Origin: an uncultured Pseudomonadota bacterium
Lineage (GTDB): Bacteria; Pseudomonadota; Alphaproteobacteria; Rs-D84
Assembly: GCA_947307295.1 (NCBI GenBank)
Contig: CAMZIQ010000002.1
Location: forward strand, 80,621-144,620
Reading direction: 5' to 3'
DNA length: 64,000 nucleotides
The translations under genes and the position numbers were made by a program. The notes beneath the pieces are model-generated. The model searched no databases. It saw only the letters and a program-made list of their open reading frames with translations, and was not told the DNA's origin. The stretch's first letter is position 1. Every line of letters begins with the position of its first letter. This document shows, piece after piece, positions 14,264 through 64,000 of the stretch.

Positions 14264-14273
14264 AAAAAGCAAA

Positions 14274-14367: not shown

Positions 14368-14398
14368 GTTGGGGGGCTAAAATCTTCATAACGAATTT

Positions 14399-16057: not shown

Positions 16058-16102
16058 AAGAGTTTTTGGTTTTTTTATTTTATTTTTTTTTGTTTTATTT
16101 TA

Positions 16103-17149
16103 TTGCGGCGTGCCGCAATTTATGATAGAGTAAAATATGGTTACAGACACAGGAGTTTAAATATGTATACAATAGCATCGTTTTTTGCCGGTGTTGGTGG
16201 CATAGACTTAGGTTTTGAACAAACTAATAAATGCAAAACAATCTATGCTAATGAGTTTGATAGTTATGCAAGTGAGACGTTTGAAAAAAATTTTCCCGAT
16301 GTCAAAGTTGATCAACGAGATATACATGATGTGCCTGAAAAAGATATACCAAATGTTGATATTTTTATAGGCGGTTTTCCATGTCAGGCATTTTCTATAG
16401 CCGGCTACAGACGTGGCTTTGAGGACGAGAAAGGTAGAGGAAATTTGTTTTTTGAGCTTGTTCGTATGATGAAGGCAAAAAAACCTCGTGTTGCGTTGTT
16501 TGAAAATGTAAAAAATTTAGTTAGCCACGACAAAGGGAATACGTTTCGTGTGATTTGTAATGAGTTGGAAAAATTGGGTTATTATTATACATATCATGTT
16601 TTGAATGCCATGGATTATGGGAATATGGCTCAAAACAGGGAACGTATATATATAGTAGCATTCAAAAATAAGAAAGATTTTATAAAATTCAAATGGGCGA
16701 AGACGGTACCTCTAACAACAACAGTAAAAGATATTATAGATTTTACTAAGAAGGTAGACGATAGATTTTATTATACAAAGGGAAAATACAAGGGTGATAT
16801 ATATGAAAGGCTTGTTGAAGCTACAAAAGGTGACGATCCTAAAAATCCGGCAATATACCAATGGCGTAGAAAATATGTTAGAAAAAACAAAAGTGGAGTG
16901 GTGCCAACTCTAACAGCTAATCAAGGTGAAGGTGGTCATAATGTTTGTATTGTAAAAACAAAATATGGTTTGAGAAAAATGACCCCTCAAGAATGCTTTA
17001 ATACCCAAGGCTTTCCAAAAACGTTTTTGTTACCAAAGCAAAGCGATGCACGTTTATATAAGCAGGCTGGCAATTCTGTTTGTGTACCGGTTATACACAA
17101 TATAGCAGAAAACATAGTAACAGCTTTGTCTGACGGCGAAGATAGCTAG
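16103..17149 (+). CDS. DNA (cytosine-5)-methyltransferase (copy 2; start probably 16163)
   Basis: Identical translation at offset +9082, with the same m5C motifs. Confidence 0.9.
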   Translation: MRRAAIYDRVKYGYRHRSLNMYTIASFFAGVGGIDLGFEQTNKCKTIYANEFDSYASETFEKNFPDVKVDQRDIHDVPEKDIPNVDIFIGGFPCQAFSIAGYRRGFEDEKGRGNLFFELVRMMKAKKPRVALFENVKNLVSHDKGNTFRVICNELEKLGYYYTYHVLNAMDYGNMAQNRERIYIVAFKNKKDFIKFKWAKTVPLTTTVKDIIDFTKKVDDRFYYTKGKYKGDIYERLVEATKGDDPKNPAIYQWRRKYVRKNKSGVVPTLTANQGEGGHNVCIVKTKYGLRKMTPQECFNTQGFPKTFLLPKQSDARLYKQAGNSVCVPVIHNIAENIVTALSDGEDS

Positions 17150-17306
17150 AGCTCTTAGTGCGTAGCTGAGATTGTGTAATTATTGCAGGCACAACAAAAA
17201 CTTGAAAAATGTAAGTAACGTGGTATATTTAATGTGAGTACTCGTAAGTGTGCTTGTGACATTAGATAGCGGAACGGGTTTGATCACCCAAGTACTAGTC
17301 TAGATA

Positions 17307-17428
17307 GTGTCCCAACCGAATGGTTGGGATGCCTTGTGCTATACAATAGGTCTTACCGACTAAAAGCCTTGGGGTTCTGTACTTGAATTGATCAACATCC
17401 CAACCGCCTAATAAAGCGGTTGTTTTTT
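17307..17428 (+). repeat. leader-like repeat C (copy 2) ending in a terminator hairpin at the Nuc-like start
   Basis: Identical to 8225..8346 at +9082. Confidence 0.5.
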
Positions 17429-17953
17429 ATGTTGAAAGCTACTGGATGTTTTTTGTTTTTGATTCTTATATTTGAATTGGTTGCATGTAATCAAAATGCT
17501 ATACAACCAATTCAAGAAAACCATAATGATATAAAGATATTTTTTACTCCCGGCACAGAATGTGAAAATAATATTATTGAAAGAATAAACCAATCAAAAA
17601 AAGTGGACATAGCTGTTTATTCAATTACAAACCCTGCTATTACAAAGGCTATTATTTCTGCATATAAACATGGGGTAAATGTAAGAATTGTGACAGATAA
17701 AACACAAGCATCAGGAAAAAAATCATTAGTCTCTCAAATACGTGCTGCCGGAATACCTGTTTTGACTAATAAAAAACACAAGATAGAACATAATAAGTTT
17801 GCTGTTTTTGACGATGTACATGTTGTTTCTGGATCTTATAACTGGACAACAAACGCAACCAACTATAACAGTGAAAATTGCCTATTCTTTGATCAACCAG
17901 ACATGGAATATTCTAAAAGATTTGAGTATCTATGGAAGGTTTATAGTGAATAG
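17420..17953 (+). CDS. Nuc-like PLD-family endonuclease lipoprotein (copy 2)
   Basis: Identical translation at offset +9082. Confidence 0.8.
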   Translation: MFFMLKATGCFLFLILIFELVACNQNAIQPIQENHNDIKIFFTPGTECENNIIERINQSKKVDIAVYSITNPAITKAIISAYKHGVNVRIVTDKTQASGKKSLVSQIRAAGIPVLTNKKHKIEHNKFAVFDDVHVVSGSYNWTTNATNYNSENCLFFDQPDMEYSKRFEYLWKVYSE

Positions 17954-17954
17954 C

Positions 17955-19640
17955 CTAGTAGTATATTTTAAATCCATCGTCTGTACCCAACTCTTCTATC
18001 ACATTTTGTATTCTTTTTATTGTTATTTGATCTACTGTTTGAAATCCTGCTTTGCCTTCTATGGATTTTGGATCAACTTTTTCTGGTATCTGAGAGACGA
18101 TAAAGTTGAAATTTGTACCTTCTTGTTTGTTTTTTAGCAAGCAGGCATGACTAACTACAGATGCTCCACCATACATCTCAAATATCACCCCGGATCGTTG
18201 CCCAATAAGATCCAAAAGCATAGTTATAAGTTTTACCGGTTTTTTTGATCCACTAAATGATATATGACCTTCATTTTGTAGTGTTGATTTAGTGTCTGAA
18301 ACATCCCATATATCACCTAAAATAACAGAATTTTTCAAGGATCCATCTTCTTGTTTTATAAGGCTATCGCTAAAACGCAAATATAAGGCGTTTTTAGAGC
18401 CTTTTTCTAGTAACTTGCCCTTGTACTCGAATATAGGGTCTAAATCGTCTCTATGGGCATAAAAAACGCTTTTATAAGCATTTGATTTGGGGTAAACAGC
18501 TTTGTATAGGTCTTTTGCTATAGTATTGTACATATAATGTTTGAATTCTGGCTCTATTTTGATCATTTTTTCTATGTTTTTAGATAATAGTTCCATGTTG
18601 TGCTTTTTGAATAAGTTTATTATATGAGGTTGCTGTTTCAGGTGGTCAATCAAATATATTTTTTCGTGCACTCCAAAAGTCGAATTTGGTTTTTTGATAA
18701 GATGCTTAAAGGAGTTTTGCCAGTAAGTACTAGATGGAGTGTATAAACGTTGCAGGTGATTTACTTTTGATTTGTCTTTTGCATATACTAATAAATAGGA
18801 TTTTAGTCCGGGTAATCTGTATTGAGTCCTAGATACAATAATAGATGCAGGGGTGCTTGTTTTTATGACGATGTTGTTTATAAAGTTTTCTCTACCGTAT
18901 ACAGAATCCATAAGCACTTTTACATACGCCATTTCGTGCTCACTTACAGATAGAGCAACAAGTCCGTCTGGTTGAAGAAGTTTTTTTACTAATTCAAGGC
19001 GAGGAAAAAGGTGCTCTAAAAGCTGGCACGTTCCGTCAAATGAAGAATTATATGCTAATACAGCTCTGTTTGATGGCATGTTAAAGGGTATGTCCCCGTA
19101 TGCAAGTAACAGTTTTCCTGAGTATTCTGGTAAGAGCCATTTACAAGCATCTATATTATCTTTCACTAGAACAAGATTTTTAGATTTTTCATTATTTGGT
19201 AAGGAGTTGAAAGATTTGTTTGGGTGAAATTTGACTTTTGTTGGAGTGTTTGTTAGTTTTTCTGCCCTTTCTCTTCCATTAAAGTATAGAAATAGTCCGT
19301 TTTTGTTTTGTGTTTGTGTGGTGTTGTTTTTAAAGTCTTCTAGCGATCCAATTATTCCTTCGTATCTATACAGTTGCCCCCATTTTTTACCATTTTCAAC
19401 TTTGCTTATAATTCCGGTGTTGCAGAGAAGTTTGAGTGTGTTGGTGATGGTTGGTCTTGGGATTTTTGTTTGTTTGCATAAAGTTGTGATGTCGAGTTGA
19501 GGGGTTTTGCAAAAAGTATCAAATATGGCTAATGCTGTGTTTTTTGATCTACCAATGTTTTCTATTTTTGCTCGATCTGTAGATATAATTTCTGTATTGA
19601 ATGTATTTATTGTTTTTCTGATGGTTTGTTTTTTTATCAT
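17955..19640 (-). CDS. wHTH plus degenerate amino-MTase-like protein (copy 2)
   Basis: Identical translation at offset +9082. Confidence 0.65.
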   Translation of the reverse strand: MIKKQTIRKTINTFNTEIISTDRAKIENIGRSKNTALAIFDTFCKTPQLDITTLCKQTKIPRPTITNTLKLLCNTGIISKVENGKKWGQLYRYEGIIGSLEDFKNNTTQTQNKNGLFLYFNGRERAEKLTNTPTKVKFHPNKSFNSLPNNEKSKNLVLVKDNIDACKWLLPEYSGKLLLAYGDIPFNMPSNRAVLAYNSSFDGTCQLLEHLFPRLELVKKLLQPDGLVALSVSEHEMAYVKVLMDSVYGRENFINNIVIKTSTPASIIVSRTQYRLPGLKSYLLVYAKDKSKVNHLQRLYTPSSTYWQNSFKHLIKKPNSTFGVHEKIYLIDHLKQQPHIINLFKKHNMELLSKNIEKMIKIEPEFKHYMYNTIAKDLYKAVYPKSNAYKSVFYAHRDDLDPIFEYKGKLLEKGSKNALYLRFSDSLIKQEDGSLKNSVILGDIWDVSDTKSTLQNEGHISFSGSKKPVKLITMLLDLIGQRSGVIFEMYGGASVVSHACLLKNKQEGTNFNFIVSQIPEKVDPKSIEGKAGFQTVDQITIKRIQNVIEELGTDDGFKIYY

Positions 19641-19774
19641 GGTACGCTCTCTCTTGAATCATTATTTTTTATAGCAGAAAATAATGAATAATGCCAATCT
19701 AAAAAAAATAACAAAGTATACATTTTTATCATAATTTTGAGTTCTAATATACATACAAAAAAGGATCTATACTA

Positions 19775-19957
19775 ATGCTAACAAAACCAGAATTCACACA
19801 AGAAAAACTATTGACGGTTACAGAGGCAGCTAATATTTTGAATTTAAAACCTTCTACCTTATACCGTATCAAACAAAATGAAAGGTCTCCCAAAAAGGTC
19901 AAAGTTTGTGGCAGGCTTTATTTTACTCTTTCTTCTATAAACAACATAATGGGCTAA
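19775..19957 (+). CDS. AlpA-like HTH protein (copy 2)
   Basis: Identical translation at offset +9082. Confidence 0.65.
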   Translation: MLTKPEFTQEKLLTVTEAANILNLKPSTLYRIKQNERSPKKVKVCGRLYFTLSSINNIMG

Positions 19958-20791
19958 TCTCTTTTCTAATATCTTTCTCAATTTGTTTATGGGGTTTGGT
20001 AAGAGTAATTCGCCACGTTGTTTGAGCCATAAAGCAAAGATAATGACGGTTTTCAGTTGCTTTATATCAAAATAATTCACTTTATGTGGGTTGAATCTCT
20101 CTTTGCCAAACCAAGTCTTCATTGTAAACAGCTCACTACCTTCGTTGATATGTGGATCTTCGTTGTCTTTTAATTCTTTGACAAGGTAAGCACAAATTCC
20201 CTCTTTATCATAAACACATCTCAAATCAAAAACGGTCTTATAAAACTTATATTTATCAACGATTTTACTAATTGCATCACATAATCTGTAGCCAATATAT
20301 TCGTCATGATCTGTACTTTTGAAGAGAATATGAACATGCCACCAAAAATCATTCTTACCATGTTCCATTACACCAACACATTGTAAAGCGTTTCTAGTCC
20401 AATGATTTTTTTGTTCTATGGCAAGAGTTTGAATTTCTTTGAATAATTTTTTATAAGATTTTTTAGCGTCTTCTCTGTTTCTTGTTCTTCTAAAACCGGA
20501 TTGGGTGCATCTGGGTAGTTTGATTGTCAAAAGATAAGAATAGTCTTCTTGCATTAGTTGTTTTTGCCAATATTTCCTAGAGTCTTGATATTCAGTTTGG
20601 TGATTCCTATAAAAACCATTCAATTCTTCATTTATCTCATTTGTAAATTTAGACATGATTTCCTCTAGCGTTCTAAACCTTCTTCTTATTTTCAATCCAC
20701 GTTCTTCCACATAAAACGTTCTTCTTTTTATTGTTTTACTTAGTTGGGAATGTTGAACATCTAAATTAGAAAATAAATCATAACCATTCAT
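19859..20791 (-). CDS. HUH Rep/MobT-like protein (copy 2)
   Basis: Identical translation at offset +9082. Confidence 0.55.
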   Translation of the reverse strand: MNGYDLFSNLDVQHSQLSKTIKRRTFYVEERGLKIRRRFRTLEEIMSKFTNEINEELNGFYRNHQTEYQDSRKYWQKQLMQEDYSYLLTIKLPRCTQSGFRRTRNREDAKKSYKKLFKEIQTLAIEQKNHWTRNALQCVGVMEHGKNDFWWHVHILFKSTDHDEYIGYRLCDAISKIVDKYKFYKTVFDLRCVYDKEGICAYLVKELKDNEDPHINEGSELFTMKTWFGKERFNPHKVNYFDIKQLKTVIIFALWLKQRGELLLPNPINKLRKILEKRLAHYVVYRRKSKIKPATNFDLFGRPFILFDTV

Positions 20792-21053
20792 TTATTACCT
20801 TCTTGGTTTACTTTGTTTAATGAATGATCAACACACCTTTTGTTTTGGGTGCTAATCAGTTTGAATCAAAAAGCCCGGATTTATAAGGGTTGAAGCGTAA
20901 TCCAATCCAACAGGAGCGATTTGATTTATTTCCTAGAACTGTTTTTTTTCATAAAGTTGTAAAATTTTTCATTCTTTGTGATTTTTTTGAGGAACGATTC
21001 GTAAAAAAAGACAAATTCGATACAAAAATAGGTGTTTTTTCTGGCAGGAGGCA

Positions 21054-21111
21054 AGTGTATACACTTTGTGTATAAAAAATACTTGACATCGGTACACAAA
21101 AAGTGTATACT
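21054..21111 (+). promoter_or_regulatory. switch region copy 2 (TTGACA 21083-21088, TATACT 21106-21111, GTGTAYAC operators)
   Basis: Identical to 11972..12029 at +9082. Confidence 0.6.
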
Positions 21112-21140
21112 GTAGCTGTAACAAAAACAAAAGAGGTGTT

Positions 21141-21683
21141 TTGATGGAAAAATATAGAACAAAGTTTGGTACATGGATCTCTGTATTTTGTGCCAGACAT
21201 GGATTAAACATCGCAAGGGCTGCTTATGAATTGGGGTTGGCTCCTACTACATTGGCATCTATTGTAGCTGGAAGACATCCTTTACCGGTGTTCTTGCGTG
21301 AAAATATCATAGCGACTTTCGGAAGATATTTGTCCGGAACAGATATTGCCGAAATGGATCAAAGCATTGTTGATACAGAGGCAGGAGCTGTGATTGTGTC
21401 AAGGAACTATAAAAAATACGTCAGTGCACAAACAGTGAATGACAAAGAATGGTGTCTAAAACTGATGGATGTAATGGCTAAAGCGACCAATAAAATGAAC
21501 AAGGAGGAATCTGAAGAAATTTATGCTCGTTTGCAAGAGATTGCTGAACGCCCTGCACCAGTATCTATAGAATTAGACAAAGATATAGATATTGAAACGC
21601 TGAGACAAGATATTCGCAGACGGTATAAAGACCCTGTAAAAACAGAACAAATTGTAGAAAAAATAAAAGAACTGAGACAATAA
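21141..21683 (+). CDS. XRE-like HTH regulator (copy 2)
   Basis: Identical translation at offset +9082. Confidence 0.6.
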   Translation: MMEKYRTKFGTWISVFCARHGLNIARAAYELGLAPTTLASIVAGRHPLPVFLRENIIATFGRYLSGTDIAEMDQSIVDTEAGAVIVSRNYKKYVSAQTVNDKEWCLKLMDVMAKATNKMNKEESEEIYARLQEIAERPAPVSIELDKDIDIETLRQDIRRRYKDPVKTEQIVEKIKELRQ

Positions 21684-21797
21684 AAAATAAAGTGGGTGAA
21701 CAAGCTGCAACCTGCTCACCCTAACAAACACCAAACGAGTTGGATGTCTGCCACAAAGTCATTTTAGCTCGTTTGGATCAAAAATCAAGAACCAAAG

Positions 21798-23111
21798 GTG
21801 ACTAAAATGAGCAAACAAGAAAATATTACACAAACATTAGTAAATAAAATCGTATACAACATCGAAAAAGGCAACACGTCTGAATTATGTGATGTGTGGG
21901 ATTCTAAGACATCAGGTTTTGGTATACGAGTTGGCAAAACCAATGCATCTTTTATTTTCAAATATAGAAATAAGGCAAACAAAGCCCAAACAAAAACATT
22001 TGGTAAAATAACCGAAATGTCTGTTGCTGAGGCTAGAAATCTATTGGACGCATTTAAACCAACAATAAAATCTGATCTTGCAACAATTCAGAAAACTAAT
22101 AAGAAATATACGGTGAAAGATTTATGTGAAAAATATCTTGCGGAACACCAAACTCGTGCAACAACGAAAAAACAAGACGAAAGCAGGATTGAAAGACACG
22201 TCTTGCCAACACTTGGCAACATACCATTACATTTATTGACAGCTAAAGATATTATGAATGCACAAACGGCTATTGCAAACGGTGATAAAAAAATAATTAT
22301 AGCAGGACATAAAAACCCAAATAATCCACATTCATATATCAAAGTATCTGGCGGTCAAGGTGCTGCTAAAAGGGTTATGGAAATGCTGAAAACAATTTTG
22401 AATTTTGCAGAAGACGAAGAGTTGATTGAAAAAAATCCTATGAATTCTCGTAAATTCAAAAAAATCAAATACGATAAAAAAGAAACAGCGTATCTCGAAA
22501 ACAACAATTATGAAAATCTTGGTTATTTGTTGAAAAAGCATGAACAGCAATCAAAGAAAAGCAATCAAAGTGTGTTGTTTATAAAATTATTGGCTTTGAC
22601 GGGCTGTCGTAAAGGTGAATTATTAGGTCTTACTTGGAATCGAGTAGATTTTACCAACCAATATTTTGTGTTTGCTAAAACAAAAACTACAGGGGAACAA
22701 AAACGATATTTTGGATCTGCAGCAAAAAGATTATTGTTAGATATGCACCAAAAAGCTACATCCAACTACTTGTTCCCTAGTATTACAAAAACAGGTACAC
22801 ATAGAAAAGATTGTTTGAGAGCTTTAAAGCAGATTTGTAAAACAGCACAAGAAAACAAAAGTCAATTTGATGCAATACAAAAACTAACCCTACATGGTCT
22901 TAGACATTCATTTTCAACAATGTGTAACACCCTCTCTTTTCCCGATGTAATTAGAGAAGGACTTATGGGGCACAAGAATGGTGGTGTACAATATATTTAT
23001 ACACACAATACACATAACACAATGATTGAACATGCAGATAAAGTATCAGAAAGTATCAACACGTTGTTAGATACGGGATGTAAAAAAGCAGAATTGGAAA
23101 ACAACAACTAA
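21798..23111 (+). CDS. int: tyrosine integrase (copy 2)
   Basis: Identical translation at offset +9082. Confidence 0.92.
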   Translation: MTKMSKQENITQTLVNKIVYNIEKGNTSELCDVWDSKTSGFGIRVGKTNASFIFKYRNKANKAQTKTFGKITEMSVAEARNLLDAFKPTIKSDLATIQKTNKKYTVKDLCEKYLAEHQTRATTKKQDESRIERHVLPTLGNIPLHLLTAKDIMNAQTAIANGDKKIIIAGHKNPNNPHSYIKVSGGQGAAKRVMEMLKTILNFAEDEELIEKNPMNSRKFKKIKYDKKETAYLENNNYENLGYLLKKHEQQSKKSNQSVLFIKLLALTGCRKGELLGLTWNRVDFTNQYFVFAKTKTTGEQKRYFGSAAKRLLLDMHQKATSNYLFPSITKTGTHRKDCLRALKQICKTAQENKSQFDAIQKLTLHGLRHSFSTMCNTLSFPDVIREGLMGHKNGGVQYIYTHNTHNTMIEHADKVSESINTLLDTGCKKAELENNN

Positions 23112-23123
23112 AGAGGTAAAAAA

Positions 23124-23345
23124 ATGAAATTTATAACAGAAAGAGAATTAGCTAAATTTTTATCGAATGAATATGGTTTGCCAACATCGAAAAAATCATT
23201 AGAAAAATTACGTGCAAAAGGTAAAGCACCAAATTTTAGAGTTTGGGGTGGAAAAATTGTATATGAAAAGCAAGATGTACAGACATGGCTCAACAATCAA
23301 ATGGCGATTTGTTACAAGTACACAATGCCAAAATATAGCATATAA
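23124..23345 (+). CDS. excisionase-like HTH protein (copy 2)
   Basis: Identical translation at offset +9082. Confidence 0.55.
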   Translation: MKFITERELAKFLSNEYGLPTSKKSLEKLRAKGKAPNFRVWGGKIVYEKQDVQTWLNNQMAICYKYTMPKYSI

Positions 23346-23422
23346 AAAAAGCAAAATGCTCCCAATATGCTCCAAAATGATAAAAACCACAAAACTAACA
23401 CAAACACTAGAGAATCAAAAAA

Positions 23423-23449
23423 CCCCGGAAATCCGGGGTAAATCTTTTT
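23423..23449 (+). terminator. Rho-independent terminator after xis (copy 2)
   Basis: Identical to 14341..14367. Confidence 0.5.
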
Positions 23450-23480
23450 GTTGGGGGGCTAAAATCTTCATAACGAATTT

Positions 23481-23528
23481 CACGATGTCAACGTGACGCT
23501 CTAGCCAACTGAGCTAACCACCCAAAGC
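23481..23528. repeat. att core copy 3 (attR; orphan tRNA-Val 5' half next to the native upstream flank)
   Basis: Exact 48-bp direct repeat. Downstream sequence diverges from the element (gaaagtattataacaactt...). Confidence 0.85.
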
Positions 23529-23623
23529 GAAAGTATTATAACAACTTATTTTGGATTTGCAAATAAAAAACCAGAATTATTAGTTTTTATCTTGATGATT
23601 TTTTTAAAGTTTGCTAGACTTGT

Positions 23624-43640: not shown

Positions 43641-44051
43641 GTGTCTGTGAAAAAGTATATTTTTCCCATATTGATGATATTTGCATTTTTATGTGAAGCT
43701 GATGCAGCGGTAAAGATTAAAAATTCCACAGAAACGCGTTATGAAGAACAATATTATGAAACTTCTGGGGACGCGGAAGATGCTGGTGATATCGCTACGT
43801 TGGAAAACGATATTCGTATATTAGACGAAGAAATTGCAAAGTGTAAAAAGCAAAAGAAAGGCTGGATAGCTGCAACCGTTATCGGTGCTGCTGGAACGGT
43901 GGCTACGGGTGTTGCCGCCGGTGTTCAGGGTGTAAAGCTTCGTGATAAAAAAGACGATTATAGGGAACAAGCCACAGAATTGGGCAAATTAGACAGACAA
44001 AAAGCAGAACTGGATAAACAGATAAAAGCAGAAGAGGCGAAGAAAAAATGA
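43641..44051 (+). CDS. secreted/membrane glycine-zipper coiled-coil protein (136 aa; GTG start, possibly at 43647)
   Basis: Signal peptide, Gly-zipper segment GWIAATVIGAAGTVATGVAAGVQG, and a K/E-rich coiled coil. Paralogous N-terminal architecture to the next gene. Confidence 0.5.
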   Translation: MSVKKYIFPILMIFAFLCEADAAVKIKNSTETRYEEQYYETSGDAEDAGDIATLENDIRILDEEIAKCKKQKKGWIAATVIGAAGTVATGVAAGVQGVKLRDKKDDYREQATELGKLDRQKAELDKQIKAEEAKKK

Positions 44052-45889
44052 GAAAATATTTTCTGATTGGATTATTGGTTTCTTTGATGCCGAATATTTG
44101 TTTGGCATACGGTCCACGTTATACACAATTGGTGCGTGAAAAAGAACGCAAAATGGCTGAATTGGAAAAATGTATGGGTTCGACCAAGGGATTAAAGATA
44201 GCGGGCGTATCCACGTTGGGATTGACTGCCGCCGGGGTTGCGGGCAATATCGCAGAAGCCAGCGCGATAAAAAGTTATGATAAAAAGATAGATAAAGCCA
44301 AAGACGATATTAAAAAGGCACAAAAAGCCGTAGATGAAAAAGATGCCGAATTAAATAATTTAAAACAACAAAATCAGCAACCTAATCAAAACCAACAAGG
44401 TAATGCACAAGCATCAAGCGCGAATAATCCATCCAACAGCGAATGTCCAGAATTTGCAAATACACCAAATGTGGTAAAGACAGAAAAGAAAGAAGATAAA
44501 TGCGTAATTACCGAATGTGCCGAAAATTTTAAACCCGCCGAAAACGGACAAATTTGCGTGCCAGCGAAAGATTGTGGTCCAATAAAATTATTGTACGGTG
44601 ATTATTGTGTAGATTTTTGTCCAGATGGTACAAAAGAATATATGCGCGTTTGTCAAGATGAAGAAACAGCAAAACATAATTTAGAATTTGATAAAAAAGT
44701 TAAAGAATGTCTTAAACACGGCGCTGCTGGTTATTCAGAAGGAAAAGGTTGTTTGTGTCAAAATGAGAACACACATCAATGGGATGAAAACAAAAAACAA
44801 TGTGTCGAAAAAACAGACGAGTCTGAAAATAAAAAATCTGAAGAGTGTCATAATAAAGTTGCTCATGAATTTATAAATGGTATACCAAGCAAATATGATA
44901 CCTTATACCAAAATAATTTATCTGCATTGCGAAACCGTACTGCTGATGCGGATGGAACTATAGATTTTGTTTGTACTTGTAACAAAACAGCAGTATGTGA
45001 AAAAGGGAAAAACTGGTCAGAATGTAAATATGCTTATGATGTTTTACCAGATATCGCAAGACATTACACAAAAATGCATGCCTTAAATGAAGAATGTGGT
45101 GAAACAAATGACGACACTATGCAATATTTGAAAATTAAGCCAACAACAGAACAAACAAAGAAAGACCAAAAAGACTGTATAAAGGAAGTTGCGCAAAGTT
45201 TTAAAAATGAGATACCTGATGGGTACAAAACCCATTATAACGAACTTTTGGGACAGTTAAAAAGTCAAACAGCAGAAGAAGCTGGTTTTGTAAATCCTGT
45301 GATGAATGGTATAACAATAACTTGTAAAAAAGGTCAAAAGTTTGAAAAATGTGAAAATGGTAAAGATGGTTTGGCAGCTATAGCGAAAGACTATACCATG
45401 AATTATGCAAAAAATGATAAATGTGGAACAAATCATCCAACAGTTCCAACACTTACAATTCATCCAACAAAAGAAAGTGAAAAATCAAATCGTCCAGAAA
45501 AAGCGGAAGACGATATAGATTGTAAAAAAAATGTAGAATATTACGCCAAGCAGAAATGGTATTTTGATGTAAATTCGAGTGAGATTGGCAACGAGTATGA
45601 ATTAGCGGTTAGAAACGATATTGATGTTTATAATAAGTACAAAGCAAAGGTGCAAGAAATATACGAAAAAGAAAAGACGGAATTTGATAAACATATAATA
45701 CAAGAAGGTGAAACGAAACAATGCGATGCTTATAGTGTATCGTATAAAAAATGTCCAGATAAAACATATGAAGCATGTGATAAGAATTATTATATTTGTA
45801 GTTTAGCATTGGTGGCGGACGCCATACAAAAACAAGTAGGACCACAGTATATAAACGAAATGGTAGAAGTAATATGTAAAAATAAATAA
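44048..45889 (+). CDS. secreted Cys-rich protein: signal peptide, Gly-zipper, coiled coil, Q/N-rich linker, then Cys-rich region with two tandem ~110-aa repeats
   Basis: Internal repeat ECHNKVAHEFINGIPSKYDTLYQNN... versus DCIKEVAQSFKNEIPDGYKTHYNEL.... Multiple CxxxC/CxC spacings. No homolog recognised. Confidence 0.5.
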   Translation: MRKYFLIGLLVSLMPNICLAYGPRYTQLVREKERKMAELEKCMGSTKGLKIAGVSTLGLTAAGVAGNIAEASAIKSYDKKIDKAKDDIKKAQKAVDEKDAELNNLKQQNQQPNQNQQGNAQASSANNPSNSECPEFANTPNVVKTEKKEDKCVITECAENFKPAENGQICVPAKDCGPIKLLYGDYCVDFCPDGTKEYMRVCQDEETAKHNLEFDKKVKECLKHGAAGYSEGKGCLCQNENTHQWDENKKQCVEKTDESENKKSEECHNKVAHEFINGIPSKYDTLYQNNLSALRNRTADADGTIDFVCTCNKTAVCEKGKNWSECKYAYDVLPDIARHYTKMHALNEECGETNDDTMQYLKIKPTTEQTKKDQKDCIKEVAQSFKNEIPDGYKTHYNELLGQLKSQTAEEAGFVNPVMNGITITCKKGQKFEKCENGKDGLAAIAKDYTMNYAKNDKCGTNHPTVPTLTIHPTKESEKSNRPEKAEDDIDCKKNVEYYAKQKWYFDVNSSEIGNEYELAVRNDIDVYNKYKAKVQEIYEKEKTEFDKHIIQEGETKQCDAYSVSYKKCPDKTYEACDKNYYICSLALVADAIQKQVGPQYINEMVEVICKNK

Positions 45890-45955: not shown

Positions 45956-46708
45956 TTATCTTTTCTTTTGCCAAGCGTTTGCACGGCGGACATAACCTTT
46001 GGCAAGTTCGGTATCAAACAATGCTTTTTCGCTGAACATGGTTTGTGATTTTAATTTTCCTTCGGCGTCTATCCAGATATCGCGATGTTCAGGGACAACA
46101 GCGTTTATTTTGTTCAAATTTTCAATAACGTTATCTGGGGACATTCCACCACTGTATCCCATTGGGTGAGTTTCGTAAATTGGTTTTTGCCACGCCTTTG
46201 GTGCGATGCCATTTCCGCCGCTGGCATCAAAAAGCAAAGAAAATTTTGCACCGGTATTATGCATTTTTTCTATTGCTGATTTCGTGTTATCATTATATTG
46301 AAAAATAAATTCATGGTGCGGGAAATCGTGTATAATCTTAGCCAGCCCGTCTGTATCTATATTTGTGGCTGTTATTTTTGGCATATTTAATTGAATACGT
46401 TTGATAAGTGGTTTATTATGAGATTTTTCAAGTTTTATCCAATCTAGGACAATATTTGGAATTTTAGCCCCAGCACAAATATCATTTGCCCATTCTTGAT
46501 TAATATGGATTGCTAAACTGATACGGCTGCCTTGGTTAACCGCATATAATAAATCATTAAACCAAACATTTCGTGGCATACCTTCACTCATTTTCGAAGG
46601 GTGGCATTGAACAGCGACTTCTGCATGGGGCAAATGCGCCAAATCTATGATAGACTTTATTGAATTGTGTTCACGTGGGTCAGAACAAGTTATATATCTT
46701 AATTTCAT
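45956..46708 (-). CDS. phosphoribosylanthranilate isomerase (TrpF)-like TIM-barrel protein
   Basis: LLFDASGGNGIAPKAW and GYSGGMSPDNV resemble the PRAI D-x-GGxG...FDW and AGGLxxxNV motifs. No other trp genes in the window. Confidence 0.45.
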   Translation of the reverse strand: MKLRYITCSDPREHNSIKSIIDLAHLPHAEVAVQCHPSKMSEGMPRNVWFNDLLYAVNQGSRISLAIHINQEWANDICAGAKIPNIVLDWIKLEKSHNKPLIKRIQLNMPKITATNIDTDGLAKIIHDFPHHEFIFQYNDNTKSAIEKMHNTGAKFSLLFDASGGNGIAPKAWQKPIYETHPMGYSGGMSPDNVIENLNKINAVVPEHRDIWIDAEGKLKSQTMFSEKALFDTELAKGYVRRANAWQKKR

Positions 46709-57031: not shown

Positions 57032-57712
57032 TTATCTGGCTGGGCTTAATCTTATTTCTATGCGGCGATTCATTAATCGACCCATGTCATCTTGGGCTGC
57101 AATCGGGCGCGCTGAACCACGACCAACTATGAACATGCGTGATGTAGAAACATCGTGTTGTGCCAGATATACGCCGACACGTTCAGCCATATCTAATGAT
57201 AATGCACCTGCGGCACTTTTATCTTTCATAGAATCTGTGTATCCCGCAATTTCCATAAATGTCGCGTTATATTTATTTAATATTTTTGAAATGATTTTTA
57301 ATGTGTCTGCACCATCTGATGAAATATCTGCGATATCATCCCGCATAATTGCACCACGTACCAAAATTATAACAACATCAGTTCCGGCGCGTTGGACAGA
57401 TAACCCGGGTTTGCGTAATGCATCATACAATTCATATTCTAATCCAGACATATATTTTACAAGCACCGTATTATCGATATTATTTTTATCACCATATTGC
57501 ATCTTTTCGGATAATTCACCTGATGCGGTGACTATTTTTCCACCATGTCCCATGTATATAGGTAATTTTGCGGTTTTGGCAGTTTCTGTCATATCCATAA
57601 AAGATGCACCATACAAATATTGATTCCATGTATTACGAGCAGGACTGTGGTATTGCAAACATCCTGATAATAAAATTGATAAAGCAACAAAAATTATTTT
57701 ATTCATTTTCAT
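57032..57712 (-). CDS. OmpA-family lipoprotein (OmpA_C / MotB-like peptidoglycan-binding domain)
   Basis: Lipobox LLSGC. C-terminal AGYTDS...SLDMAERVGVYL...GRGSARPIA...GRLMNRRIEI motif set. Confidence 0.75.
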   Translation of the reverse strand: MKMNKIIFVALSILLSGCLQYHSPARNTWNQYLYGASFMDMTETAKTAKLPIYMGHGGKIVTASGELSEKMQYGDKNNIDNTVLVKYMSGLEYELYDALRKPGLSVQRAGTDVVIILVRGAIMRDDIADISSDGADTLKIISKILNKYNATFMEIAGYTDSMKDKSAAGALSLDMAERVGVYLAQHDVSTSRMFIVGRGSARPIAAQDDMGRLMNRRIEIRLSPAR

Positions 57713-57715: not shown

Positions 57716-58171
57716 TTATTGCGCAAAGAACGATATCATATTGTCGCCAGATTTCATACAATACGAAGAATCTGAAGAATCATAACCGTTCACATTTATA
57801 CGTGTTGCCCAATTAAATTTTTTTGTTGTAAAATATGCACATTCTGAAAAAGACAATCCTACTAAATTAATCGAAAATTCTGTGCCTTCAAAATTACTTG
57901 TCACAGACCAATCTTCACCACCAGCTGGTGCCCGATTATCATTAATCACGCCTGCTTCAATTAAATAGTCGACAGATACAGGCGTATATCCAGAATATTC
58001 CAACAAAGTTTTTGTTTTTTGTGCAATGTCTTTTAATTCTTCACTGGCAATTAAACGCTTTTGTTTTTCATTAGTGGTATGATAAATACTGTACGTTGCA
58101 GATATCATTAAAGCACCGATTGCCAAAACACCGATAATTTCTATTAAAGAACGTCCTGATTGCTCTCTCAT
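57716..58171 (-). CDS. type IV prepilin-like (pseudopilin) protein, 151 aa
   Basis: Class III signal MREQSG|RSLIEIIGVLAIGALMISA with Glu at +5 after the predicted cleavage site. Small pilin-size body with Cys pair. Confidence 0.6.
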   Translation of the reverse strand: MREQSGRSLIEIIGVLAIGALMISATYSIYHTTNEKQKRLIASEELKDIAQKTKTLLEYSGYTPVSVDYLIEAGVINDNRAPAGGEDWSVTSNFEGTEFSINLVGLSFSECAYFTTKKFNWATRINVNGYDSSDSSYCMKSGDNMISFFAQ

Positions 58172-58182
58172 TTTTATCCCTT

Positions 58183-59715
58183 TTATTTAGATATATTTAC
58201 AATTTCTGCATCTTTGAATAAATCCATTGCGCTGGCAACCATAGGGTCTGCCGCAATTTCAGATTTATTGTGTTCAGATATAGTTTGTTGATGTGGTGTT
58301 TCATCTACGCGTTCCAGAACCCAATCATTGCCAGTATTATCTTTTAACCATAATGCTAATTTTTGAGTAAAATTTTTATCATTTTGTCTATCAAAATATT
58401 TTATTTTATTGTTGCCAAATTCAATTATTTCAAGATTAGAACTGAAATAAGAATACAACAATAATTCGCGCGCTTTCTGTAATTCTTCAACCAACATTTC
58501 TGCAGAAGTTATGTTTAAAAATTTTGGTTTTTCAACCACAGGAGCCTCTGGTTGTTTTACAGGTGTTTTTTCGGGCTGTTGTTTTAATAGTTCTGGAATA
58601 GATGGCATGTCTGCAATGTGCATCAAACGTATAACCAGCATATCAAAACATTGTTTTTGATTACCAGATGCCTGTAATTCAGGTACAGCTGCAACCATAA
58701 CTTGCCATATTCTTGATAATGTATTCAAAGAAATTGTTTCGTCTATCTTTTTTATAGTTTCGCGTTGATCCGCAGTATATGGTGAAGATACAACATCTTG
58801 TAATCTTAAAGATTGGTGCATACGTGTTGCCCAATGAGTCCATTCCATCATATCATTTAACAACATCGTTAAATCTGCGCCATTAGAATAAATTTCGTCT
58901 AATTTATTCAAAGCGGCACTTACATCACCAGATAAAACAACCTTCATAAAATTAACAACTGTACCCCTGTCTGTTCGTTTAAGCATATCCAATACAGCGC
59001 CTTCGTCAACGTGACCACCTGTTTGCGCGATTGCTTGGTCAAGCAAAGACAATCCATCGCGGACAGAACCATCTGCCGCACGTGCCAACAATTCGTTGGC
59101 TTCAGCAGATAATTCGATTTTTTCTTGTTCTGCAACCCATGCAAAATGTTTTTTCAAAGTTTCAACAGGAACGCGAGCCAAATCAAACCGTTGGCAACGT
59201 GATAAAATAGTGACAGGAACCTTTCTTATTTCTGTTGTAGCCAAAATAAATATAACATGTGCAGGAGGTTCTTCCAGGGTTTTCAGCAACGCGTTAAATG
59301 CGCTGGGCGATAGCATGTGAACTTCGTCAATAATATATACTTTGTATCGTGCGTTTGTGGGACGATAAAGTGCTGCATCTAATATTTCACGCATATTATC
59401 AACGCCAGTATGCGAAGCCGCATCGATTTCCATAACGTCAATATGTTGACCCGCCGCAATAGCCCGACAATTTTCACATTCACCACATGGCTTTGATGTT
59501 GCCTTATCGGACGATAAACAATTCAAAGCTTTTGCCAAAATACGCGCGGTACTGGTTTTTCCAGTTCCGCGAATACCAGTAAAAATATAAGCGTGTGCAA
59601 TACGCCCAGTATTAATGGCAGTTGTTAAAGTTTTGACCAAAACATCTTGACCAATAAGAGTTTCGAAATTTTGGCTGCGATATTTGCGTGCTAAAACGGT
59701 ATAATTATTTTCCAT
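58183..59715 (-). CDS. dnaX: DNA polymerase III subunits gamma/tau
   Basis: AAA+ Walker A GIRGTGKTS, zinc module CGECENC, sensor motifs, 510 aa. Confidence 0.92.
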   Translation of the reverse strand: MENNYTVLARKYRSQNFETLIGQDVLVKTLTTAINTGRIAHAYIFTGIRGTGKTSTARILAKALNCLSSDKATSKPCGECENCRAIAAGQHIDVMEIDAASHTGVDNMREILDAALYRPTNARYKVYIIDEVHMLSPSAFNALLKTLEEPPAHVIFILATTEIRKVPVTILSRCQRFDLARVPVETLKKHFAWVAEQEKIELSAEANELLARAADGSVRDGLSLLDQAIAQTGGHVDEGAVLDMLKRTDRGTVVNFMKVVLSGDVSAALNKLDEIYSNGADLTMLLNDMMEWTHWATRMHQSLRLQDVVSSPYTADQRETIKKIDETISLNTLSRIWQVMVAAVPELQASGNQKQCFDMLVIRLMHIADMPSIPELLKQQPEKTPVKQPEAPVVEKPKFLNITSAEMLVEELQKARELLLYSYFSSNLEIIEFGNNKIKYFDRQNDKNFTQKLALWLKDNTGNDWVLERVDETPHQQTISEHNKSEIAADPMVASAMDLFKDAEIVNISK

Positions 59716-59781
59716 GATGCTTCCTTATGTCAGAAAGCATAGCAAATAAATATATGATTTCAATTAAAAAACGCAGTTAAA

Positions 59782-60108
59782 TTATTTTAAATTTGTGATG
59801 AAATCAGGAAATCCCATTTCTTCATCTTCGCCAGAATCATTTGTTTCGCCCGCATCAGTTGAATCTGTTGTTTCAGCGATTTCTTCGGGAACCACAGTTT
59901 TATCTTTGGGATCGCGCTGAGAATCAATTTTCATTTGTTCTTCGTTTGCGATACGACAATAGTGTTCAGCCGCCTGCAATAAACGTTCACGTTCAACTTC
60001 ATCGCTAGTTTGACGAGCCTGGTCAATATATTGTTTTCTTTTCTGACGCCATTTATGACAGCGTTGAATCATCTGTCCCACAGGGGTTTGATTTTTTTTA
60101 TTAGCCAT
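59782..60108 (-). CDS. DUF4167-like conserved alphaproteobacterial protein
   Basis: QAAEHYCRIANEE resembles the DUF4167 QHAEHYFRI signature. Basic N-terminus, acidic C-terminus. Confidence 0.45.
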   Translation of the reverse strand: MANKKNQTPVGQMIQRCHKWRQKRKQYIDQARQTSDEVERERLLQAAEHYCRIANEEQMKIDSQRDPKDKTVVPEEIAETTDSTDAGETNDSGEDEEMGFPDFITNLK

Positions 60109-60232
60109 TTTGTTTCTTTTGTTAAAGGAAATATTCTTTCTCTAAGCAGTAATTTTTATTACCACCTAACGTTTCAACAGTAGATATGTTATAACATCTT
60201 AAAACTGATTGCAATAATTTTTTTCAATTGCT

Positions 60233-61612
60233 ATGCTTAACGACATAAGGGGGGATTTTTTGCAAAATCAACGGGGTAATTTTCTATTGCAGGCTTTGTT
60301 GGCGTTGACTTTGGTCTTTGCTTTTATGCCGTTTTTTGCTAATAAATTGTCTTCGCGTGATACTGCGGCACAAATGTATACGGCAACAGAACAAATTGAA
60401 ACTGCGTATAACGCAGCGCGTATATATTTACGCGAAGAAAAAGACAATCTGCCATATAAAAAGCAAGAATTATCAGAAAGCGCTTTTGTAGATGTATTAG
60501 AAAGTTATGGTTTGCCACTCGGTTTTGTCCCAGAAACCAGTTTTAAGCAAAAGATATCTTTGGTCATAGATAAAAACCAAGATGGCATAAGGGGATATAT
60601 TAAAATAGATGGTGGAAAATTATCAAAAATACAAATCGCAGAAATGGCACGAAGAATTGGTTTTTACGCCGTGGCTAATAGTTCTGGCATAGAAGTTAAT
60701 ATTCCGATTGATACGATGTATTCTGATATTGTGTCAAAAAAGGAAACTGATGAAAATATTGGTTTCTTGGCAGAATTAGACATGAATGGAAACTCTATAG
60801 ACAAAGCCGGTGTTTTGTTTGCGCGTAATGGCAATTTTGAAACGGCTCAGTTTAATACATTGGTGCTTTATGGGGTAGAATCAAATCGTAAAGAAAAAAA
60901 TAAAATATCTGACATATATGCAAACAGGACTGTTTTTCAAAGTGCGGATGGTGGCGCAGCATTATCTATGGCCAAGGGCGAATTAAATGTTAGTGATTTA
61001 TCTTTGCGTACAATTTCTAAATTTGGTGTGGCGGGCGGTTTTGAATCTAATTCTGCCGCGGTTTATGATTTTTCAATGGCAGAAGGCAAAGCTGGATTTG
61101 TTGGTCCATCTGATTGGCAAGTACACGGTTCTGTACGTTCTGATAATTTTAGCTTTGTGGTGGATAGGTTAGATATAGGTTCTTATTTTGATGCTTCTCG
61201 TGGTCAAGATGTTTATATTGATTCAGACACTTTGTCGTACAATACAAAAATGGGTGTCGAAGTAAACAATATCTATGCTGCCAACATATCTTTACGTGAT
61301 CAAACATCGTATGGTTTATTAAACGGTCAAAGTGGCGCGCTATTAATAGATATTCGTCCGGCTGGAACATCTGTTTTGCCAGATGTTCTTATAGATACAA
61401 TAAATAATGATTCTTTTGATATTATTGCGAATGCAAAAGATATGGATGGTAAAACTGTATCTTGTCGAGATATTATCTCAGGATTAAATGTTGAATATAA
61501 TAATAAATCTTTGGTGCAAAATATTGTTTGTCAGTATGTTTTTTGGCAAAGATTAGAAGCGAGGATAGATATAAAACAATGTATGGTAAATGGTAGAAAT
61601 GACTGTCTATAA
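60233..61612 (+). CDS. large (≈450 aa) type IV prepilin-like protein; probable TTG start at 60260 giving MQNQRG|NFLLQALLALTLVFAF
   Basis: Short basic leader ending Q-R-G, followed by a ~20-aa hydrophobic helix. RBS aagggggg 60250-60257. Confidence 0.5.
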   Translation: MLNDIRGDFLQNQRGNFLLQALLALTLVFAFMPFFANKLSSRDTAAQMYTATEQIETAYNAARIYLREEKDNLPYKKQELSESAFVDVLESYGLPLGFVPETSFKQKISLVIDKNQDGIRGYIKIDGGKLSKIQIAEMARRIGFYAVANSSGIEVNIPIDTMYSDIVSKKETDENIGFLAELDMNGNSIDKAGVLFARNGNFETAQFNTLVLYGVESNRKEKNKISDIYANRTVFQSADGGAALSMAKGELNVSDLSLRTISKFGVAGGFESNSAAVYDFSMAEGKAGFVGPSDWQVHGSVRSDNFSFVVDRLDIGSYFDASRGQDVYIDSDTLSYNTKMGVEVNNIYAANISLRDQTSYGLLNGQSGALLIDIRPAGTSVLPDVLIDTINNDSFDIIANAKDMDGKTVSCRDIISGLNVEYNNKSLVQNIVCQYVFWQRLEARIDIKQCMVNGRNDCL

Positions 61613-62795
61613 AAAACATTTTAATCGTGCAAGCTTGCTCGCACAACGCGGGGCTTCGATGACAGAAGTAATTCTGGCAGTAGCTGTCGTTATCGTTGTG
61701 TCGCCTTTTTTATACAATCAAATTATAGATATGGTGCATGAATCTACAGATATAGCGATGGCGAATCAAATTGTTAATTTACGTGGTGGAATTATAAATT
61801 TTTTACGCATAAACCAAACAGAATGGGCAGATACGGTCGAAATAAAAATGACTGAAGAGCAAATTAAAGAAATCGCCCCATTTGCTCACAGTGGGTTTAT
61901 TGATAAATACAAAGTAAATGGTGCATCGATTACAGATGTGTATCTGGCTTTTGATATAGATGCGCCAGATTATAGAATTGCCAGTATTGCTAAACAAATT
62001 GGTGAAGATGCTGCGGTGGTTCGCGAAGACGGAATTGCTTATTCACAAAGTTGGGCTGTGTCTGCCCCAGAAGATTTTTATGTCGGCGATTTGATTTATA
62101 GAATTTCTCGTGATTTTGAAGGTGCAGACAGAACGCGATTTTTACATCGTGGAACGATGGGCGAAGATGGTTTAAATCAAATGCAACGTGATTTACATTT
62201 AAACAATTATAACATATTTAATGTAAGTACCATTGATGCAGTATCTGCCAAAATCATAGACGTTGATGCAGTATTTCTGGATTCAGATGTTATCGATGCA
62301 AATAGTGTATATTTTTCTTCTGGTGCGAATATGAATTCTGCAAATATTGCTGTTAATTCGATGCGTGTGACTGGCGATACGAACGGTTTTAAGATGATAA
62401 GTGCAGATAAATTAAATGGTGATAAATACACTACAAATGGACGTATTGTGGCAGACAGAGCAACTGTTGGAAAATCAATAAATGTATCTGGTAATTTGAT
62501 TTTAAAATCTTCTGGGGCGCAGACTATTAATGGTTTTGGTGGAATATCCATGAATAAACTTTTGACACCTTATATATCGGCTACGGATATGGCATTTTTT
62601 GAAAATTTTGGTGTGACAGTATCGGGCGAATTACTGTTGGCTGGCGAAGCACCTTTGAAAATAGGTTCTTGGTATTTTCCTTCGACAACGCCACCATCTT
62701 TTTCAAAGTTTATATTGACGCGTGCGACAATACCATCTGTGCCGGATGCATCTGAGTTTAAAGCAATCATACAAAAAAATTGGCAGAATAAGTAA
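61590..62795 (+). CDS. large (≈390 aa) type IV prepilin-like protein; possible in-frame TTG start at 61635 giving MLAQRG|ASMTEVILAVAVVIVV
   Basis: Leader ending Q-R-G with Glu at +5 and a hydrophobic helix. Overlaps the stop of the upstream gene. Confidence 0.5.
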   Translation: MVEMTVYKKHFNRASLLAQRGASMTEVILAVAVVIVVSPFLYNQIIDMVHESTDIAMANQIVNLRGGIINFLRINQTEWADTVEIKMTEEQIKEIAPFAHSGFIDKYKVNGASITDVYLAFDIDAPDYRIASIAKQIGEDAAVVREDGIAYSQSWAVSAPEDFYVGDLIYRISRDFEGADRTRFLHRGTMGEDGLNQMQRDLHLNNYNIFNVSTIDAVSAKIIDVDAVFLDSDVIDANSVYFSSGANMNSANIAVNSMRVTGDTNGFKMISADKLNGDKYTTNGRIVADRATVGKSINVSGNLILKSSGAQTINGFGGISMNKLLTPYISATDMAFFENFGVTVSGELLLAGEAPLKIGSWYFPSTTPPSFSKFILTRATIPSVPDASEFKAIIQKNWQNK

Positions 62796-64000
62796 TGATA
62801 AAAAAACGTACTTTTCTTTATCGAAATATGCAACATGGCGGGATGCTGGTTGAATTGATGATGACAATAGCATTGGCTGCGATAATAATTCCTTTTGTTT
62901 TCAGATATCAGCAAACCGCAGTTGTTCGTGCAAGAAATGTTGCAATAGCAAAACAAATGGAAAATGTGCAAAGTGTTTTGGAAAGATATATTATTGAAAA
63001 CAAAACAGAATTAATGAAGCCGACTGGTAAAAATATATCGCGTGTAAAAATATCTGATTTGGTTAATTATGGATTGCCTGAATATATTGCCACAGATTAC
63101 AAAGACGATTACCAATTGCGTGTATTAAAAACAGCAGATAAAAATAATAAATCTGTATTGCAAGGAATTGTAATTTTATCCAACAGCGAAATTACCCCGC
63201 TTCGTACACGCGAAATAGTAAATCTTGGTGGTGGACAAATAGGTTTTACAGAAAACGGCATAACACATGGTGGTTTTGGTGCTTTTCGTACAAATACATC
63301 TGAATTTGGTATCAAAGATGCCAAAGGCTTGATTGGAACGACTGCGACTACACGTGGTAATACAGAATATTTATGGCGACTGCCATCAGAAAACGAAAGT
63401 GATGCGACAATGTTATCGCCTTTGAATATTGATGGACATGATATAACCAAAGTAAATTTTTTTGATGCCAGCAAAGCGCAATTTGAAGAAAGATTAAAAG
63501 TCAGTAAAATTGCGACAGATTCATTAATGTTTTCTAATCGTGCAACCATAGATGCGATTTTTGCTACTAATACAGCGGTAGTAAATGGGGCTTTTACATC
63601 GGATTCGCGTAATTTAAATGTGGGTGGAACATTGGCTTTGGCAGATTCAGCAAAATTTTCTACATTTTATACAAATGATTTGTACGTGAACACATTAACG
63701 TTAAGTGGGTTTAGTATATCATCAACATCTGGCAAATCTTCAACTTTGCAAATTATTGGCGATATGGATTTAATTTTGGGTCGTATAACTGCGGCATATG
63801 TTTCTGTTGGATATACAGGTTCTGTGACACCGCAATTAACAGTCACTAATAAAATTCAAGACCCAAAAGATTCATCTTATTACTGGGATATCGGGAATAA
63901 AAAAGCACGTTTTTCAGATGTGAATTTCCCTGATTTGTCGCGAATGGCATCTCAGATAGTAAGGCTAGAATCTGTATCTGGCACGGTTGCAACGACTGTA
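62796..64000 (+). CDS. large type IV prepilin-like protein, 5' part (≥401 aa; runs off window end; not in ORF track)
   Basis: ATG at 62796 overlaps the upstream stop (taATG). N-terminus MIKKRTFLYRNMQHGGMLVELMMTIALAAIIIPFVF is a classic prepilin signal. The frame stays open to position 64000. Confidence 0.6.

Follow-up and report, generated by a model that had tools for sequence, protein, structure and literature searches.

Predicted PilS- and PilV-like pilins encoded in a conserved four-gene cluster of Candidatus Enterousia, candidate subunits of a chromosomal R64-type thin pilus

A stretch of 64,000 nucleotides from contig CAMZIQ010000002.1 of an uncultured alphaproteobacterium (assembly GCA_947307295.1), here called the window, ends in a cluster of four genes for prepilin-like proteins, designated pA, pB, pC and pD. 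The source lineage is Candidatus Enterousia (Alphaproteobacteria, order Rs-D84). With a probability of about 0.78, the four proteins are the subunits from which a chromosomal type IVb pilus related to the R64 thin pilus is built. According to profile comparisons, pA is a PilS-like major pilin candidate and pB, pC and pD are PilV-like minor pilin candidates. Such pili are previously unreported in the Enterousia lineage, and what is new about the predicted system is that it represents a chromosomal core, shufflon-less, three-paralogue variant in a reduced-genome uncultured alphaproteobacterium.

The family assignment was based on hhalign profile-profile comparisons with 72-80 orthologues per protein. 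pA was matched over its full length of 144 columns to PilS, the major pilin of R64-type pili (95.3%, E 2.3e-8), and the other three proteins were matched to PilV: pD at 96.9% (E 1.6e-10, 217 columns), pB at 96.5% (E 8.6e-10, 186 columns) and pC at 93.6% (E 2.2e-7, 202 columns). Control comparisons of pA with PilV (15.5%), pD with PilS (0.2%) and pA with pD (0.8%) scored low, and therefore the hydrophobic helix common to all of these proteins cannot alone yield the PilS and PilV matches. pB, pC and pD are mutually homologous over their N-terminal 180-230 residues (87-97.6%), the upper value being that of pC with pD (97.6%, E 2.8e-12). A search of the pD profile against 1.84 billion protein representatives returned 211 relatives only. 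The distant ones have lengths of 400-1137 amino acids, match just the N-terminal 220-300 residues, and nearly all carry a G↓xxxxE-hydrophobic-Pro N-terminus, where the arrow marks the predicted cleavage site. PF04917 (Shufflon_N, the PilV constant region) was found in 16 of 62 distant pD relatives with a best E of 1e-105, and one relative matches an annotated pilV on 782 plasmids. With IncK PilV as tblastn query, pD orthologues were matched in 27 loci at E ~1e-6. The first-pass annotation of this DNA had called a run of pilins of 390-460 amino acids atypical and had suggested minor pilins or tip adhesins of a type IV pilus. The latter suggestion is supported by the PilV matches, while the size of pB-pD is not anomalous, because the PilV proteins fetched for comparison themselves comprise 415-462 amino acids. 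For pA, the N_methyl domain (PF07963) scored 16 bits against a gathering cutoff of 21.2; among 20 of its orthologues, 19 matched N_methyl at E<1 (best 8.9e-4) and eight matched PilS_N (PF08805; best E 3.9e-5).

Structural comparisons were centred on the N-terminal region. pD was modelled twice with AlphaFold2, using 39 and then 82 sequences, which resulted in predicted local distance difference test (pLDDT) values of 46 and 57.5, a long helix (residues 16-68) followed by strands in the N-terminal region, and an unmodelled central part (residues 130-350). Foldseek with the pD model returned nothing from the PDB at E<1, and matches of the pD and pA profiles to PDB sequences were confined to the N-terminal-helix regions of geopilins and a weak match of pA to TcpA (E 0.048).

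About 20 very large proteins of 900-1137 amino acids (P0223-P0266 in our set of relatives) share the N-terminus G↓SMMVEA(L/I)AMLGLI..TPVLYKK and a PilV-like N-domain; at least one of them, P0248, belongs to PF04917. By sequence, this set appears to form a distinct clade of giant PilV-type pilins.

The arrangement of the four open reading frames between positions 57716 and 64000 (Table 1) had already been described in the first-pass annotation, namely prepilin-type N-termini throughout, one gene on the minus strand after dnaX, three in tandem on the plus strand and the last one leaving the window, and listing and translation of the open reading frames confirmed it. A class III leader, Gly at position -1 and a hydrophobic stretch of about 20 residues are present in all four proteins, and when the six reading frames of the entire window were searched for G-x4-[EQ] ahead of a hydrophobic 22-mer, pA-pD were the only matches. 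The leader of pA has six residues (MREQSG↓RSLIE), and the mature N-terminus would be RSLIEIIGVLAIG, with no Lys or Arg until well beyond the helix. For pB, the TTG start at 60260 proposed earlier is favoured, because a Shine-Dalgarno-like AAGGGGGG lies ahead of it at 60248-60255; translation from this codon gives MQNQRG↓NFLLQ. pC reads MLAQRG↓ASMTE from its TTG codon, which leaves a gap of 22 nt behind pB, and would overlap pB by 23 nt if started at its ATG. As noted before, the stop codon of pC overlaps the start codon of pD; the overlap reads TAATG (62793-62797), and pD begins with ...NMQHG↓GMLVE. Its full length was obtained by an exact-sequence look-up with pC, which led to two identical metagenome contigs (L001 and L002) in which pD ends about 111 nt past the window.

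Conservation was analysed in relatives of the source genome. When GTDB species genomes were scanned by pattern and tblastn, with the alignment of pD orthologues as query, 80 loci were obtained, all of them in metagenome-assembled genomes from rumen, gut or faeces labelled Candidatus Enterousia, Alphaproteobacteria or proteobacterium. Motif counts (Table 1) were taken over 72-83 Enterousia species genomes, depending on the protein. Overall identity of the orthologues is just 41-53%, yet the processing motif is fixed: Gly at -1, the residue at +5 and the hydrophobic helix are near-invariant, and the leaders on the 5′ side of Gly are variable. Since the four proteins are the sole matches in the window and their motif is fixed across divergent genomes, it is more than a chance pattern, and the alignments indicate that the pilin signature is kept under selection. 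The pA orthologues moreover share two invariant C-terminal cysteines (Cys111 and Cys138), which look like a D-region disulfide pair, and pB has four invariant C-terminal cysteines. The order OmpA-family lipoprotein, pA, dnaX and DUF4167 gene, followed by pB, pC, pD, zinc-ribbon protein, secreted protein and rluD, is identical in essentially every long-enough locus (84 loci), with pA adjoining dnaX in 73-74 loci, so that both conservation and synteny in relatives, named as checks in the first-pass annotation, speak for the cluster.

The three PilV-like proteins have in common an N-terminal pilin module of some 200-230 residues, to which each of them joins a C-terminal module of its own (some 170-230 residues). 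The C-terminal halves are mutually unrelated (hhalign <3%) yet conserved across species as strongly as the N-terminal halves, and therefore represent three fixed, distinct modules which are not rapidly varying; diversifying selection on them was rejected on the same grounds. In the distant relatives, phage tail collar, bactofilin-like and FapA beta-solenoid modules occupy this position, and the architecture fits a pilin module joined to a swappable binding module. A shufflon was also considered and rejected: the cluster showed no sfx-like repeats beyond chance-level short matches, no recombinase was present within 10 kb of it, and no Rci gene was found.

Genes for an assembly machinery were detected in the lineage by tblastn with the IncK PilQ ATPase, which gave matches at the edges of two loci. 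The same four-gene operon, arranged pilO-P-Q-R as in R64 (Table 1), is present in five Enterousia contigs, always around the ATPase gene. It adjoins the pilin cluster in JAZSAG010000045 and JAWPOC010000011, shares one contig with it in JAZQCH010000001, and sits between lpxK-lpxC and gyrB in other contexts. The ATPase carries Walker motifs and a CPHC/CPYC zinc motif and is 87-100% identical among its best 120 database relatives. A Tad/Flp system was rejected as the source of these genes, since no TadE or Flp match was obtained, the single platform protein has two T2SSF domains and the ATPase is GspE/PilB-like. Some NCBI records call the ATPase TadA, and the pilins are mostly unnamed in public records or called PilE or 'type II secretion system protein'; the present assignment corrects the annotation of the latter.

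Table 1. Features of the predicted pilin cluster, of the assembly operon in sister genomes and of other parts of the window (aa, amino acids; +1 and +5, positions behind the predicted cleavage site)
Feature	Position	Strand	Length	Description	Processing motif in orthologues
pA	57716-58171	minus	151 aa	PilS-like type IVb major-pilin candidate (open reading frame and profile comparison)	G↓RSLIE; Arg+1 74/74, Glu+5 74/74
pB	60233-61612	plus	459 aa from ATG, 450 aa from likely TTG	PilV-like minor pilin candidate	G↓(N/S)FLLQ; Gln+5 75/76 (Gln in place of Glu)
pC	61590-62795	plus	401 aa from ATG, 386 aa from TTG 61635	PilV-like minor pilin candidate	G↓A..xE; Glu+5 80/81
pD	62795-64000 (window end)	plus	438 aa, 402 of 438 codons in window	PilV-like minor pilin candidate	G↓(G/S)MLVE; Glu+5 78/83
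OmpA-family lipoprotein	57032-57712	minus		PF00691, E 5.9e-11; 3 nt downstream of pA, same strand
dnaX	58183-59715	minus		ends 11 nt before pA
pilO2-like (sister genomes)			420 aa	PF06864, 30.5 bits vs 26.7 cutoff
pilP-like (sister genomes)			223-240 aa	secreted coiled-coil protein; TIGR03021, 34.0 bits, cutoff 34.65
pilQ ATPase (sister genomes)			542-544 aa	T2SSE E 2e-61; 30% identical to IncK PilQ, E 3e-43
pilR platform (sister genomes)			356 aa	two T2SSF domains; 24% identical to PilR, E 1e-24
Inverted repeat	59723-59750 / 60223-60250		28 nt	82% complementary; flanks small DUF4167 gene
Tandem duplication	5283-23546		9,082-bp unit	unit present twice in perfect tandem
tRNA-Val(GAC)	5283-5359			tandem unit begins within it
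Open reading frame	44048-45889		613 aa	between pnp and rlmN; no Pfam/NCBIfam match
Open reading frame	45956-46708		250 aa	between pnp and rlmN; no Pfam/NCBIfam match

On the basis of these protein families, the following mechanism is proposed. An A24 prepilin peptidase would cut behind the invariant Gly, and a PilO2-PilP-PilQ-PilR machine with PilQ as ATPase and PilR as platform, encoded elsewhere in the genome, would extract the subunits from the inner membrane and polymerise pA into a filament. The PilV-like pB-pD would prime assembly and sit at the tip, where pB, itself without Glu5, may form the cap, in analogy to tip subunits that also have no Glu at this position. The C-terminal modules would then bind surface structures of other cells, and the pilus would attach a presumably partner-dependent bacterium to partner or host cells. 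PilV is a cell-surface adhesin which binds lipopolysaccharide (LPS) (PMC9045228, PMC5297154). Enterousia genomes have a size of about 0.75-1.0 Mb and encode no flagella, no respiratory chain, an incomplete glycolysis and no standard nutrient transporters; the lineage occurs widely in the guts of ruminants, horses, chickens and humans, and its lifestyle was proposed to be partner-dependent via unknown surface structures (PMC12306168).

Several points weigh against this interpretation. The pilO-R operon comes from sister genomes, not from this strain's own sequence. Searches by tblastn with IncK PilU and by a scan for GxGD-K motifs with at least three transmembrane segments in the open reading frames of the window and about 90 loci revealed no A24 prepilin peptidase either in the window or in related loci totalling about 1.6 Mb, and no secretin was found in the same sequences (tblastn and blastp with PilN); four further contexts of the ATPase gene likewise yielded neither. 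The genome check for a peptidase and an assembly ATPase envisaged in the first-pass annotation thus led to an ATPase and a platform protein in the lineage but, in the sequences covered, to no peptidase. Therefore, we infer A24 cleavage of pA-pD from the conservation of the motif. pB, pC and pD gave no usable Pfam or NCBIfam match above threshold, with no N_methyl (PF07963) match and, even at E<=1, no direct PF04917 match in the Pfam scan. The +1 residues Arg, Asn, Ala and Gly are unusual for N-methylated pilins. The tip location of pB-pD is argued solely by analogy, and the same is true of adhesion to other cells, which follows the example of the LPS-binding PilV. Finally, a genome survey of Rs-D84 mentioned type IV pili only in a different lineage (PMC12306168). 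From the tblastn and blastp searches of the window and the fetched loci with further IncK queries (PilL, PilM, PilO and PilP), no PilL or PilM match was obtained; the genes for these proteins and for PilN may be located in other parts of the genome.

Four other explanations were weighed, each of which fits gene content and conservation less well than the R64-type pilus. The same machine could be mainly a secretion device resembling the pseudopilus or piston of a type II secretion system (T2SS), in which pB-pD select cargo rather than adhere. Its best NCBIfam matches are indeed GspE for the ATPase (214 bits) and GspF for the platform (77 bits), slightly over PilB and PilC, conserved secreted proteins of 156 and 1093 amino acids are encoded just downstream, and the type IVb systems of the toxin-coregulated pilus (TCP) and colonization factor antigen III (CFA/III) secrete TcpF and CofJ. 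However, the GspE and GspF scores fall well short of the respective cutoffs (630 and 424 bits), searches of the cluster proteins and their neighbours gave no GspC, D, L or M and no GspH-K domain, and pA has the appearance of a complete filament pilin of the PilS type, including a D-region disulfide. With the R64-pilus-specific PilO2 (PF06864) and PilP (TIGR03021) as accessory proteins, the secretion device is considered improbable, and the T2SS-like or competence apparatus mentioned in the first-pass annotation was not confirmed. Type IV pili commonly serve transformation, and a reduced genome could gain from scavenging DNA or nucleotides, so that a competence pilus whose large minor pilins bind DNA or help to pull it in was also taken into account. 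The weak ComGG-like match of pB (E 0.064) would agree with it but reaches 13.9 bits against a cutoff of 40, no ComEA, ComEC or retraction ATPase was present in any fetched locus, and the homology is to PilV adhesins and not to DNA-binding minor pilins, which makes a DNA-uptake pilus highly improbable.

Since the nearest characterised relatives are the thin pili of conjugative plasmids and an integrase-bearing island lies inside the window, the cluster might be what is left of an IncI-like conjugative element once integrated, with a pilus still serving mating-pair stabilisation as in R64 or PAPI-1. We give this explanation very little credence: about 80 species show the cluster in an unchanged order amid dnaX, infB, rluD and lpxD, no relaxase, type IV secretion system or Rci gene was found nearby, and the integrase island, which carries restriction-modification genes, lies at a distance of more than 34 kb. 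Hardly any more credible is the reading of the N-termini as ordinary signal anchors or Sec signals of membrane-anchored surface proteins that never form a filament. The missing peptidase and the atypical +1 residues, among them the Arg of pA, which is odd for a methylated N-terminus, would be in line with it, but Gly at -1 and Glu or Gln at +5 are invariant beside freely varying leaders, the PilS and PilV homology extends far past the helix over 144-217 columns, and genomes of less than 1 Mb have kept a dedicated pilus ATPase, a platform protein, PilO2 and PilP.

The surroundings of the cluster hold further conserved features. The OmpA-family lipoprotein gene follows pA in every locus reaching that far (73 loci); the protein is a possible peptidoglycan-anchoring accessory, and its membership in the system is uncertain. 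A promoter and terminator scan returned nothing above shuffled expectation. The arms of an inverted repeat (Table 1) are located just upstream of, and in the same orientation as, the dnaX start and the pB TTG codon, and each arm ends in a Shine-Dalgarno-like ACATAAGG. The core of the repeat, AAGCATAGCAA/TTGCTATGCTT, is also found in loci L020, L026, L028 and L032 and not in all species; it may be a regulatory or translation-initiation element common to both pilin transcription units. Past the window end, at 11450-13385 of L001, pD is followed in about 80 loci by three genes with overlapping or abutting frames for a 169-amino-acid protein with MJ0042-type zinc ribbon, transmembrane segment and FxLYD domain, a secreted protein of 156 amino acids without family, and an RluD-type pseudouridine synthase; the genes for the zinc-ribbon and the secreted protein may be members of the pilin operon. 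Behind them (L001, 13469-16750), a Cys-rich protein of 1093 amino acids with a signal peptide, a C-terminal hydrophobic segment and no Pfam or NCBIfam match is encoded, which is kept downstream of the pilin cluster in 64 loci.

Near the assembly operon, two species (L084, 4483-12701, JAZSAG010000045.1; also L061/L075) have dnaX, pA, OmpA, OmpH, pilO2, pilP, pilQ and pilR on one strand with no genes between, divergent from pB-pC-pD. As the window genome has infB after OmpH, a rearrangement breakpoint lies between OmpH and pilO. A conserved lipoprotein of 137-138 amino acids is always encoded between lpxC and pilO2 (L087, 6319-6735; L093, 5965-6381; L094, 7509-7922); it has the lipobox ...AACG/GCGG, no family match and an insignificant resemblance to PilP (E 0.04), and could be a pilus component or an LPS-related protein.

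Elsewhere in the window, a large tandem duplication (Table 1) was observed, in which 5306-14464 matches the sequence 9,082 bp downstream with mismatches at the ends only. Each copy encodes an NgoFVII-like restriction endonuclease, a C5 cytosine methyltransferase, a PLD-like nuclease, an N6/N4 methyltransferase, two unknown genes and a tyrosine integrase. The arrangement resembles two insertions of an integrative restriction-modification island at the tRNA gene, or else an assembly artefact. Two open reading frames between pnp and rlmN are listed in Table 1.

A conserved, complete-looking set of subunits with three adhesin-type minor pilins provides a concrete candidate for partner interaction in Enterousia, and would be a natural case of an R64/PilV architecture uncoupled from conjugation and shufflon, with diversification by paralogues instead. 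Going further, the three hard-wired PilV paralogues might replace the shufflon and form a heteromeric tip, with pB as cap and pC and pD below, which docks Enterousia onto its partners; we regard this joint interpretation as tentative and rather unlikely. If it were true, an episymbiotic lifestyle would rely on a plasmid-type mating pilus as its core device for attachment, and the pilus may work without a recognisable secretin or dedicated peptidase.

Among known systems, GspK is larger than the other T2SS pseudopilins and is without Glu5, in which it resembles pB with its conserved Gln5; it differs in that the cluster shows no GspK domain match and no T2SS gene context. CofB of CFA/III and TcpB of TCP are large type IVb minor pilins which consist of a pilin N-domain with extra C-terminal domains, are located at the tip and prime assembly (PMC9045228, citing Kawahara 2016). 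The likeness to pB-pD is one of concept alone, and the homotrimeric CofB tip invites comparison with the three paralogues; no sequence match to the solved structures extends beyond the N-terminal helix, and fold comparison was uninformative. The pil genes of Salmonella Typhi SPI-7, P. aeruginosa PAPI-1 and Burkholderia pseudomallei Tfp7 are R64-type genes which, like those of Enterousia, are found off the plasmid and in reshuffled order. Operons of R64 variants are often reshuffled, and those of PAPI-1 and Burkholderia Tfp7 lack the peptidase gene pilU, which is supplied in trans (PMC3984277); this matches the peptidase not found at the Enterousia loci. Each of these three systems occupies one island with one pilV in a large genome, whereas Enterousia has at least two loci among housekeeping genes, a genome of less than 1 Mb and three pilV-like genes, with no pilN and no pilL/M recognised.

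The closest comparison is with PilV, which serves as tip adhesin and minor pilin in the thin pili of IncI1, IncI2 and IncK plasmids (R64, TP114; PF04917). The Enterousia genes differ from it in being chromosomal, core, unlinked to conjugation genes and shufflon-less, in consisting of three separate paralogous genes instead of one gene with switchable 3′ ends, and in encoding proteins too divergent for the Pfam threshold. Like pB-pD, PilV has a prepilin N-terminus and a similar length (415-462 vs 386-459 amino acids), its N-terminal ~200-230 residues are homologous, a constant N-module is combined with differing C-modules, and PilS-, PilO2-, PilP-, PilQ- and PilR-type genes are encoded along with it. 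PilV proteins of Pantoea and Erwinia even share HRG↓NMLLQ with pB, that is the same unusual G↓N-x-L-L-Q with Gln5.

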